This document shows positions 35,548 through 37,443 of a stretch of DNA of 64,000 nt, one piece after another (the stretch's first letter is position 1; each line of letters begins with the position of its first letter). The notes under the pieces were generated by a model. It did not search any database, was not told where the DNA came from, and saw only the letters and a list, made by a program, of their open reading frames with translations. The position numbers and the translations under genes were made by a program. This stretch comes from Neodothiora populina (Eukaryota): the NCBI RefSeq assembly GCF_041146345.1, contig NW_027191411.1:1116001-1180000 (forward strand), read 5' to 3'.

Positions 35548-37443
35548 TCACGCACACAAATTCATCCTGATCTTCGCTACAGTGGCAGTGTCAAAACACA
35601 GGTAATCGGTCATATACGTGTCGATGCCCCCAAAGACCTGGTCGAACATTTCGATAGTGGCGACCATATATTCCTCCCGCGCCTGCACCACATTTGCTAC
35701 CGCTGCAACGTTGCCAGCAAGCCCCGGCTGAGCAAGTAATCTTCGAGTCGCGTGCGAGCCCCAGTCCATATTGCTGTCCAAGTTGTTGAGAGCATATTCC
35801 TTCGCAATCGTGGAGGTGTCGCAGCCTGCAAGCAGCATAAGTAGCATTGCAGTGATACCGGTCCTGTCTTTGCCAGCGGAGCAATGTACTAAGATCGGGG
35901 TTGGCGAGTCCTGTGCAAGATGCTCAAAGATAGGGCGAAAAGCAGACACTCCACATTTCAGAGTATGCTGATATGCAGCCGCATAGCCCTTCGCCGCAGT
36001 TGCGTACTCTTGAAGCCGCGCTTCCCTTTTCTCAGGTAGCCAGTCTTCATCACTGAACACCGGAATCGCGACCCTCTCCACGTCTTGCAGCAGTAGCGCG
36101 AATGTTGAGCGAGACTCTTCCATGAATTGAGCAGCACTGTCTTTGCGATGCGGAACTTCCTTGGTGCTATGAACATCATTGTGGACCTCAATCGGACTGC
36201 GCAAGTCAAATAATTTCGTAATACCGAGCTTCAGAAATGCTTTGCGCCCTAGCTCTGTTATTTTCGACGGATCGCCACTACGGAAGACCAGGCCGCGTTT
36301 GACAATCTTGTTCCCGATGTCTCGAAACATGCGCACCCCTTCAATGTCAACAAATGGAGGACTAGGGTACAACACATCTTGAGCTTTAAGTCGTTTGTTC
36401 TCCTCGTGAGTCTGTTCACATGTAAAGTCGTTGTCAGCACCAGTTGACGGCGACAGTTCCCGAAAGGAGTGGAAGTAATCCACAATTGGGGGGCGTTCGG
36501 TGTCATCCACATCGCAGAAATCGTCAGTCCAAGGAAGGAACATCTTCTCGGTGTTCTTCATCACAAAGCTCCCTCGATGGAGTCGTTTCTCCGCTGTACT
36601 GAGAATTGCTTTAGCCATAGTGGTAAGCTCTCTCAATGCCTTGTGAGCATTCTGCCTTTGGCCGACATCGACTTCGGCAATTCCCAGCAGACCGATAAGA
36701 CTGTAGGTATCTATCAAGGTCCCGATCTCTACCCCATACCCTACTGGGAATGACAGCTTCTCAAGAAGCTCTCGGCGTGCAGCGAATTCACCGGCTAGTG
36801 GTTGTCGAAATCCTGCCAGGTCTGGCCAATACATGTTCAAGAGAGGTCGTGCAAGGATTTCTGTAACTCTACCACCCTCATGAGGACGGACTTCACCGCT
36901 TGCTGACTTGAAAGGTCTGTCGAAACATGCTCGGACCATTGAAATATCCTCAAGTAGTAGCAGTGGTCCTAGTATTCCAATGAGGTGCGCCGAGGAAGGA
37001 TCAGCCGTGTCTCCGTCGAGGAACGCGACAATGTCACCTAAGTTCTTTGTCGCCAGCAATCCGCGCCATAATGCGTCACCCTTGCCTCGACTTGAACCAA
37101 GCTCGGGGGCGATGTCCTTTCGTTGGATTACTTGTGCACCTGCATCGGCAGCCACCTGCCCGGTTCCATCCACTGAATTAGCGTCAACAACGAACAAGTG
37201 AGAGACAACTTTTGCTTCGATCAGAGGTCTAACGGTATGCTCAATTACGCCTCCGATGGTAGACGCGACTTCCTTGCCTGGTATTATCACTGTGACGACC
37301 AATCGTTTCCTCTGTACCGTAGTCGCAAGTTCATCTATGTCAAAGTCTCTGTGAGAAAACCGGCGCTCTTTGAGCCAATCCTGGAATGCGTTCGAGTTGC
37401 TGTTCTTGATAGTGTTCTCACAAGAGATAGCAACAGGGGCCAT
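35548..37443 (-). CDS. Fusion protein: glucosyl/mannosyl-3-phosphoglycerate synthase (GpgS/MpgS, GT81) plus tyrosine-phosphatase-like (Y_phosphatase3) domain
   Basis: N-half: VVDANSVDGT, GKGDALWRGL, FLDGD, GGRVTEILARPLL, QPLAGEFAARRELL, GYGVEIGTLID, DVGQRQNAH. C-half: FRDIG, VFRSG, FDLRS, HCSAGKDRTG. One uninterrupted ORF; first ATG at 37443. Confidence 0.9.
   Translation of the reverse strand: MAPVAISCENTIKNSNSNAFQDWLKERRFSHRDFDIDELATTVQRKRLVVTVIIPGKEVASTIGGVIEHTVRPLIEAKVVSHLFVVDANSVDGTGQVAADAGAQVIQRKDIAPELGSSRGKGDALWRGLLATKNLGDIVAFLDGDTADPSSAHLIGILGPLLLLEDISMVRACFDRPFKSASGEVRPHEGGRVTEILARPLLNMYWPDLAGFRQPLAGEFAARRELLEKLSFPVGYGVEIGTLIDTYSLIGLLGIAEVDVGQRQNAHKALRELTTMAKAILSTAEKRLHRGSFVMKNTEKMFLPWTDDFCDVDDTERPPIVDYFHSFRELSPSTGADNDFTCEQTHEENKRLKAQDVLYPSPPFVDIEGVRMFRDIGNKIVKRGLVFRSGDPSKITELGRKAFLKLGITKLFDLRSPIEVHNDVHSTKEVPHRKDSAAQFMEESRSTFALLLQDVERVAIPVFSDEDWLPEKREARLQEYATAAKGYAAAYQHTLKCGVSAFRPIFEHLAQDSPTPILVHCSAGKDRTGITAMLLMLLAGCDTSTIAKEYALNNLDSNMDWGSHATRRLLAQPGLAGNVAAVANVVQAREEYMVATIEMFDQVFGGIDTYMTDYLCFDTATVAKIRMNLCA

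Follow-up and report, generated by a model that had tools for sequence, protein, structure and literature searches.

In the genome of the fungus Neodothiora populina, a single gene was found to encode a bacterial-type glucosyl- or mannosyl-3-phosphoglycerate synthase (GpgS or MpgS) of glycosyltransferase family 81 (GT81) fused to a C-terminal cysteine-based phosphatase. The gene lies in a 64,000-nucleotide stretch of contig NW_027191411.1 (positions 1,116,001 to 1,180,000; the whole stretch is hereafter called the window), where the open reading frame (ORF) list and translation place it at 35548..37443 on the minus strand as one uninterrupted ATG-to-stop frame of 631 codons plus stop, with no intron. 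The fusion is real, recurrent and rare, and, as judged from phylogenetic trees of its two halves, the gene is a chimera of a transferred bacterial synthase and a native fungal phosphatase. On balance, we favor a bifunctional enzyme which, going by its domains, would act as synthase and then as phosphatase to give glucosylglycerate (GG) or mannosylglycerate (MG).

The original prediction for this DNA had described an intronless 631-codon ORF with a GT81 N-half and an intact phosphatase P-loop in the C-half, and had taken it for a bacterial-type GpgS/MpgS and a Cys-based phosphatase in one fungal ORF. The ORF list, Pfam and NCBIfam agree with the description of the frame, to which the strand is now added, and the architecture is borne out by Pfam, NCBIfam, and comparisons with solved structures by sequence (PDB) and by fold (Foldseek). 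In the domain scan and architecture search that had been suggested as a check, both domains scored above cut-off and the fusion recurred in approximately 10 named fungi. Moreover, the initiator methionine, Met1, is invariant across a 21-row alignment of the fusion family.

The synthase domain spans amino acids (aa) 19-321 (36481..37389, minus strand) and was identified by NCBIfam, PDB sequence matches and Foldseek. The NCBIfam equivalog for glucosyl-3-phosphoglycerate synthase, NF010496, matched it over profile positions 4-303 of 307 and scored 315.5 bits, above its cut-off of 262. Pfam gave sub-threshold matches only on this half, to PF00535 (GT2) and to PF09488 (mannosyl-3-phosphoglycerate synthase, MPGS, of family GT55), the latter being a partial match of 20.6 bits compared to a gathering threshold of 27. 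The best solved relatives by sequence were Rubrobacter xylanophilus MpgS (3f1y, 1.6e-63) and then Mycobacterium hassiacum GpgS (7p5l/7pdo, 1.5e-55), and Mycobacterium tuberculosis (Mtb) GpgS (4y6n) matched at 1.6e-48.

The residues to which a role has been given in Mtb GpgS are the K114-D134-E232 network, the metal ligand D136, the metal-binding H258 in the beta8-alpha9 loop, V186 and T187, which contact the carboxylate of 3-phosphoglycerate (3-PGA), and the donor pocket residues L209 (in the PLSGE motif), Y229 and M269 (PMC2581804, in the portion available). When the fungal protein was aligned to Mtb GpgS, the network corresponded to K121, D143 and E239, the metal ligand to D145, and the 3-PGA contacts to V193 and T194. 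The DXD metal/nucleotide motif D143-G144-D145 (37009..37017, minus strand) was read from the translation and aligned to Mtb D134-S-D136; DGD is kept in all 20 fusion rows that cover those columns. PLAGE at 215-219 takes the place of PLSGE, Y236 and M276 are found in the donor pocket, and R263 is also present. Mtb H258 aligns to N265, and an invariant histidine, H267, stands two residues further on, in an RQNxH loop common to Rubrobacter MpgS. Both PLAGE and RQNxH are of the Rubrobacter MpgS type, whereas mycobacteria have PLSGE/PLGGE and RAHRN. In the 21-row alignment, the named catalytic and substrate residues were identical in 18-21 of the 19-21 fusion rows covering each column; in one row (P0016), N replaces T194. 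We consider it very probable that the N-half is an active synthase of the GpgS/MpgS type.

The C-half (aa 366-630; 35554..36348, minus strand) was identified as a Y_phosphatase3 domain, of the MptpB type of "atypical lipid phosphatase" (ALP), by Pfam, PDB sequence matches and Foldseek. PF13350 (Y_phosphatase3) matched it with 162 bits (cut-off 22.2; E 3.1e-47). Sequence matches in the PDB were to M. tuberculosis PtpB (MptpB; 1ywf, 2.6e-13) and a Clostridioides difficile phosphatase (8dhi, 3e-13), and Foldseek matches were to 2oz5 and 8dhj (2.3e-13 and 5.8e-11, respectively). The catalytic P-loop H520-C521-S-A-G-K525-D526-R527-T-G (35857..35886, minus strand, read from the translation) fits exactly the signature HCXXGKDR[TA]G by which Beresford et al. 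defined the ALPs (PMC3091653); that report, as far as its text was available, assigns catalysis to the P-loop Asp and substrate binding to the Lys. The CX5R loop was intact in 10 of 10 fusion rows that were correctly modelled through the last exon, and four more rows aberrant at this site were out-of-frame intron read-throughs. No HAD or His_Phos model was found among the 6 Pfam and 9 NCBIfam families matching the window protein (P0001) at E<=0.1, and the C-half is therefore not a member of the known families of glucosyl- or mannosyl-3-phosphoglycerate phosphatase (GpgP or MpgP), the HAD-like "DDDD" and histidine-phosphatase "RHG" types, but at most a functional analogue of them.

An AlphaFold2 model built from a 61-row alignment had a mean pLDDT of 87.3 and a pTM of 0.59, with most of the synthase half above 90. 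In Foldseek, the predicted N-half superposed on solved GpgS/MpgS structures with E values of 2e-25 to 1e-20 and TM-scores by target of 0.79-0.91, and Rubrobacter xylanophilus MpgS ranked first. The two domains are separated by a linker (aa 322-365; 36349..36480, minus strand) whose length varies among orthologues and which is gap-rich in the fusion alignment. The linker is disordered at aa 333-353 in the model, with pLDDT below 50 at 333-344 and 346-353.

The two halves of the gene gave different histories. Among the best 80 of 309 GpgS relatives from GTDB species genomes, nearly all were from Solirubrobacterales or other Thermoleophilia, with 41-52% identity. A quick maximum-likelihood tree, rooted at the midpoint only, was made from 114 GpgS domains; of 182 candidates, 169 covered at least 230 profile positions, and all fusion, named and locus rows were used along with the first 45 unnamed representatives and every third of the rest. 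A single clade of 25 rows (SH-aLRT 99) took in all 20 fusion rows; its remaining five members are short unnamed proteins, two of which (P0036 and P0038) adjoin the Lecanora fusion. The sister of this clade (support 99) consisted of the Patulibacter proteins P0043 and P0039 and the unnamed P0037, and both together were nested within Solirubrobacteraceae and Conexibacter rows (supports 90-97). As read from this tree, the synthase half is of bacterial origin, nested in the GpgS of Solirubrobacterales (Actinomycetota), in agreement with the earlier description of the synthase as bacterial-type. In the bacterial lineage, gpgS has a GC content of 0.70-0.75 and a GC at third codon positions (GC3) of 0.85-0.94, whereas the fusion gene has 0.51 and 0.52, respectively, equal to the window (0.51) and to the neighboring genes. 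This difference indicates that the fungal copy is fully ameliorated.

In contrast to the synthase, the C-half had its nearest standalone relatives in fungi, with 36-40% identity to Dothideomycetes proteins compared to approximately 25% to bacterial ones. In a tree of 100 phosphatase domains out of 103 candidates, 13 fusion C-halves formed one group (support 90) together with the unnamed P0300. This group lay inside a 45-row clade (99) in which each of the 20 named standalone fungal proteins fell and from which named bacterial rows were absent, and it had a dothideomycete clade as its sister (92). Across the deepest split (97) lay the four named bacterial rows. The phosphatase half is thus, on the evidence of the tree, of fungal and not bacterial descent. 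Moreover, the synthase and phosphatase trees had matching subclades, with lichen fungi set apart from the rest, a pattern that fits a single fusion maintained by selection. P0127, a standalone Y_phosphatase3 protein annotated as Quercus suber, grouped tightly with Meristemomyces and Teratosphaeria proteins and is probably a fungal contamination of the plant assembly.

Searched by word index, 5.8 billion clusters yielded 1151 matches among 8000 scored candidates, and PF13350 was present in 33 of the 119 non-self rows listed. Among the matches listed, the named rows bearing PF13350 were all fungal (10 of 10): Cladosporium fusiforme, Aspergillus lucknowensis, A. nanangensis and A. heteromorphus, three Penicillium species, and the lichen fungi Pseudevernia consocians, Psora crenata and Lecanora helva. 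When 1.84 billion representatives at 50% identity were searched exhaustively with HMMER, 9270 matched; the fused architecture was found in five of them, all of which were already among the matches of the word-indexed search. In the protein atlas, bacterial GpgS clusters only were present, and no large fusion cluster was found. The distribution among fungi is patchy, and the halves are kept joined across Dothideomycetes, Eurotiomycetes and Lecanoromycetes.

A metagenome scan returned nine related loci, three of which (L081, L082 and L083) are fused orthologues. L081 is uninterrupted, and in L082 and L083 tblastn frame breaks revealed a frame-shifting gap of 52-55 nt after approximately aa 485. 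The gaps have the form of canonical GT..AG fungal introns (GTAAGA...CTAAC...CAG and GTGAGC...CTGAC...TAG, respectively). The short intron is present in L082 (1062-1115) and L083 (8507-8563) and absent from L081 and the window gene, in which the corresponding site, between K483 and G484 (35983..36021, minus strand), is uninterrupted and translates as ARLQEYATAAKGY. Shorter "fusions" of 430-580 aa labelled GpgS by JGI all diverge directly after the motif YASAA(E/Q). Because this divergence falls at the intron site, these short forms are read as prokaryote-style gene calls or read-throughs on fungal DNA, and the candidate bacterial fusions among JGI-labelled metagenome GpgS with PF13350 were rejected for the exact coincidence of the two positions. 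Deposited models of the fusion are often wrong (P0017/P0157, P0121, P0013, P0012 and P0035): the gene is split over two adjacent locus tags in Penicillium atrosanguineum, models are truncated in Aspergillus ellipticus and A. heteromorphus, and exons are garbled in two Penicillium models. Surveys of domain architecture would therefore undercount the fusion.

Fusions of GpgS to other phosphatases were seen in bacteria. When 15 long bacterial GpgS representatives, hand-picked from 150 listed HMMER rows, were scanned for domains, P0331 was found to end in a HAD Hydrolase_3 domain and P0277 in a His_Phos_1 domain; the others had a GT4, Usp, PTS-EIIA, methyltransferase or MGS_GT domain, or no additional domain in Pfam. 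Moreover, a HAD ORF directly follows gpgS at a Thermoleophilaceae locus (L061), with glycerate kinase nearby. For the step from glucosyl-3-phosphoglycerate (GPG) to GG, two unrelated kinds of enzyme are known, HAD-like and histidine-phosphatase, which are termed "non-homologous isofunctional" in the available text of PMC3240985. Since a phosphatase of a third fold is found here at the same C-terminal place as the HAD and His_Phos_1 domains, a pathway phosphatase is the simplest reading of the C-half.

From these features we infer both enzymatic activities, a substrate for the phosphatase, the sugar transferred and a physiological role, as follows. The N-terminal GT81 domain would transfer glucose, or possibly mannose, from a nucleoside diphosphate (NDP) sugar to 3-PGA, forming GPG or mannosyl-3-phosphoglycerate (MPG). 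The C-terminal domain would then remove the phosphate through a thiophosphate intermediate on Cys521, with Arg527 binding the phosphate and the P-loop residues Asp526 and Lys525 assisting. The GG or MG so formed would serve as a compatible solute or stress protectant. As to its beginnings, a GpgS from a Patulibacter-like Solirubrobacterales bacterium probably entered the Pezizomycotina and was fused to a resident fungal Y_phosphatase3 gene. We give even chances to the further proposal that the fusion represents a third, convergent class of GPG/MPG phosphatase on the Cys-based protein tyrosine phosphatase (PTP)/ALP fold and a one-protein route to GG in stress-tolerant fungi.

Several observations weigh against a bifunctional enzyme making GG. 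The disordered linker and the pTM of 0.59 give no evidence for a fixed arrangement of the two domains, and the lack of a conserved gene neighborhood between the window and L083 gives no functional hint. No report of glucosylglycerate in a fungus was found in the available text of the literature searched. The closest solved relative, Rubrobacter MpgS, has dual specificity and has PLAGE and RQNxH in common with the fungal protein. No match to Y_phosphatase3 was found at E<=10 among 10,444 six-frame ORFs within ±10 kb of gpgS at the 80 nearest prokaryotic loci, in a search whose profile, as a control, recovered 4 of 4 fungal fusions (E~1e-70) but not Patulibacter GpgS, and the pairing thus exists only within the fusion clade. 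Characterised ALPs hydrolyse phosphoinositides and phosphopeptides, and no sugar-acid phosphate substrate is reported in the available text of PMC3091653. There, a motif search yielded 40 fungal sequences, and the three members assayed were two bacterial proteins and one from Leishmania. The missing bacterial pairing and the known ALP substrates, together with the exact ALP P-loop and with nearest C-half relatives that are standalone fungal Y_phosphatase3 proteins in genomes without sign of GpgS, would fit an enzyme in which the synthase is active and the C-half is a phosphoinositide or protein phosphatase serving regulation or membrane targeting, GPG being the end product or handled elsewhere. 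We regard this as unlikely, if the strongest of the alternatives: both known GpgP families occur joined to the corresponding end of GpgS, for which a pathway phosphatase is the simplest explanation, and the physiological substrates of the ALP family are largely unknown. Moreover, ALPs are described in the same report as single-domain proteins (PMC3091653), a form from which the fusion departs.

The same two steps might instead start from GDP-mannose and end in mannosylglycerate rather than glucosylglycerate. The first rank of Rubrobacter xylanophilus MpgS by sequence (1.6e-63) and in Foldseek, its Man/Glc dual specificity as a GT81 enzyme, and motifs that are of Rubrobacter and not mycobacterial type all speak for mannose, but the NCBIfam equivalog matched is GpgS and PF09488 stays below threshold (20.6 compared to 27). 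The nearest bacterial relatives are all annotated GpgS, but these names are automatic, and a mannose-specific enzyme is held to be improbable to nearly the same degree as a regulatory phosphatase, or marginally more so. Distinctly less probable is that GG primes a larger glycoconjugate and is not a free osmolyte. Such a role exists in mycobacteria, where GG primes methylglucose lipopolysaccharide (MGLP) in the available accounts (PMC2581804, PMC3240985), and in the donor lineage the GpgS ORF has an N-terminal GT2 domain and adjoins a NodS-like methyltransferase ORF; the fungal gene, however, is without the extra GT2 domain, and glycosyltransferase or methyltransferase neighbors are absent from both the window and L083. 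Finally, the patchy distribution among fungi could be that of a decaying relic of gene transfer without function. This is very hard to reconcile with an open 631-codon frame, conservation of the catalytic residues in both halves over three fungal classes, a composition that is fully host-like, and an intron gained or kept in some orthologues.

The surroundings of the gene indicate a fungal host. The flanking ORFs encode a protein kinase, a Mo-co/cytochrome b5 oxidoreductase, a trypsin-like protease, a rhamnogalacturonase-A-like (glucanase-type) protein and a PAP2 phosphatase. The oxidoreductase has up to 81% identity to named Dothideomycetes (Dothideomycetes sp. NU459, Elasticomyces, Tothia, Aureobasidium and Hortaea), followed by lichen-forming and other ascomycetes, and the other flanking ORFs are ordinary eukaryotic or fungal genes. 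For two further ORFs, at 42617-43891 (plus strand, 424 aa) and 29545-30192 (plus strand, 215 aa), no Pfam match was found at E<=1e-5. The neighbors at L083 are also eukaryotic (Vps39, HbrB-like and others), and they are unlike those in the window.

Some further arrangements of bacterial GpgS were observed. Solirubrobacterales have a long ORF of approximately 550 aa in which the GpgS match is preceded by an extra N-terminal GT2-like domain (P0043, P0048, P0072 and P0245). At three loci (L002, 7207-10996; L005, 7102-11002; L007, 7009-10942), this GT2-GpgS ORF lies downstream of NodS-like methyltransferase and Pyr_redox_2 oxidoreductase ORFs, and in P0245 the methyltransferase, GT2 and GpgS are in one protein. 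These arrangements suggest that the donor lineage makes a GG-derived product that is methylated or extended. Other bacterial GpgS proteins are fused to PTS EIIA-2 (P0307), a universal stress protein (P0273, P0288 and P0339), GT4 (P0243, P0294 and P0366) or a second MGS-type glycosyltransferase (P0291), those to EIIA and Usp being a hint of regulatory coupling.

Fusion proteins of this kind are already present in public sets as uncharacterised entries with hypothetical or automatic names. The original prediction knew of no description of the architecture, and none was found here: no paper on the fusion or on a fungal GT81 pathway appeared in the literature searched, which leaves subscription-only literature, where fungal homologues may be mentioned, outside the search. 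As far as their text was available, a preprint (10.64898/2026.07.28.741190) only counts GT81 in some lichen-fungus genomes without analysis, and PMC6794485 merely cites a review of mannosylglycerate.

If the proposed function is right, biosynthesis of GG or MG through a GT81 enzyme would extend to fungi, GG having so far been tied to prokaryotes, and the stress-tolerant carriers, among them dothideomycetes, some aspergilli and penicillia, and lichen formers, would have a one-protein route to GG. The pathway would have acquired a third convergent phosphatase solution, after the HAD-like and histidine-phosphatase types, and the gene would be a clean example of a chimera in which a bacterial domain gained by horizontal transfer is joined to a native eukaryotic one. 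The ALP family, which is poorly understood, would also receive a first physiological substrate that is a small molecule. The authors of PMC3091653, in the text available, remarked that a family of this size was not to be expected in bacteria, of which very few produce phosphoinositides, and a metabolic role would be suggested for ALP/Y_phosphatase3 proteins, many of which occur in organisms making little or no phosphoinositide. Moreover, a single intronless gene for a protective solute, should the activity be as proposed, might be of use in engineering stress tolerance or in GG production.

Compared with characterised synthases, the fungal N-half is of the same family and fold as Mtb GpgS (Rv1208) and Rubrobacter MpgS, with the DXD motif, the K-D-E network, the 3-PGA-contacting V-T pair and the donor pocket conserved. 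In contrast to the actinobacterial GpgS/MpgS, it belongs to a eukaryotic protein fused to a C-terminal phosphatase, and in contrast to its nearest relatives in Patulibacter and Solirubrobacteraceae it is without the N-terminal GT2 domain. Its putative metal-binding His stands in the RQNxH loop, as in Rubrobacter, and not in the RAH loop of mycobacterial GpgS. The bacterial fusions of GpgS to HAD (P0331) and to His_Phos_1 (P0277) have the same domain order, with an N-terminal synthase and a C-terminal phosphatase, and the same proposed logic; the phosphatase here, however, is a Cys-based enzyme of the PTP fold, unrelated to both the HAD-like and the histidine-phosphatase GpgP. MgsD of Dehalococcoides is a bifunctional enzyme with a GT55-type MPGS and a HAD phosphatase. 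One polypeptide is likewise proposed here for both steps, whereas PF09488 is sub-threshold and the phosphatase is Cys-based.

The C-half matches the MptpB-type ALPs in the P-loop signature, the N-terminal FRD/RS/DLR motifs and the fold. It differs from MptpB in having only approximately 23% identity in the structural alignment and in being tethered to a synthase of approximately 320 residues, whereas the ALPs are single-domain as described in the available text of PMC3091653. The logic of the pathway and both domain families were thus known from these systems, and what is new is their combination, the eukaryotic host and the chimeric origin indicated by the trees.

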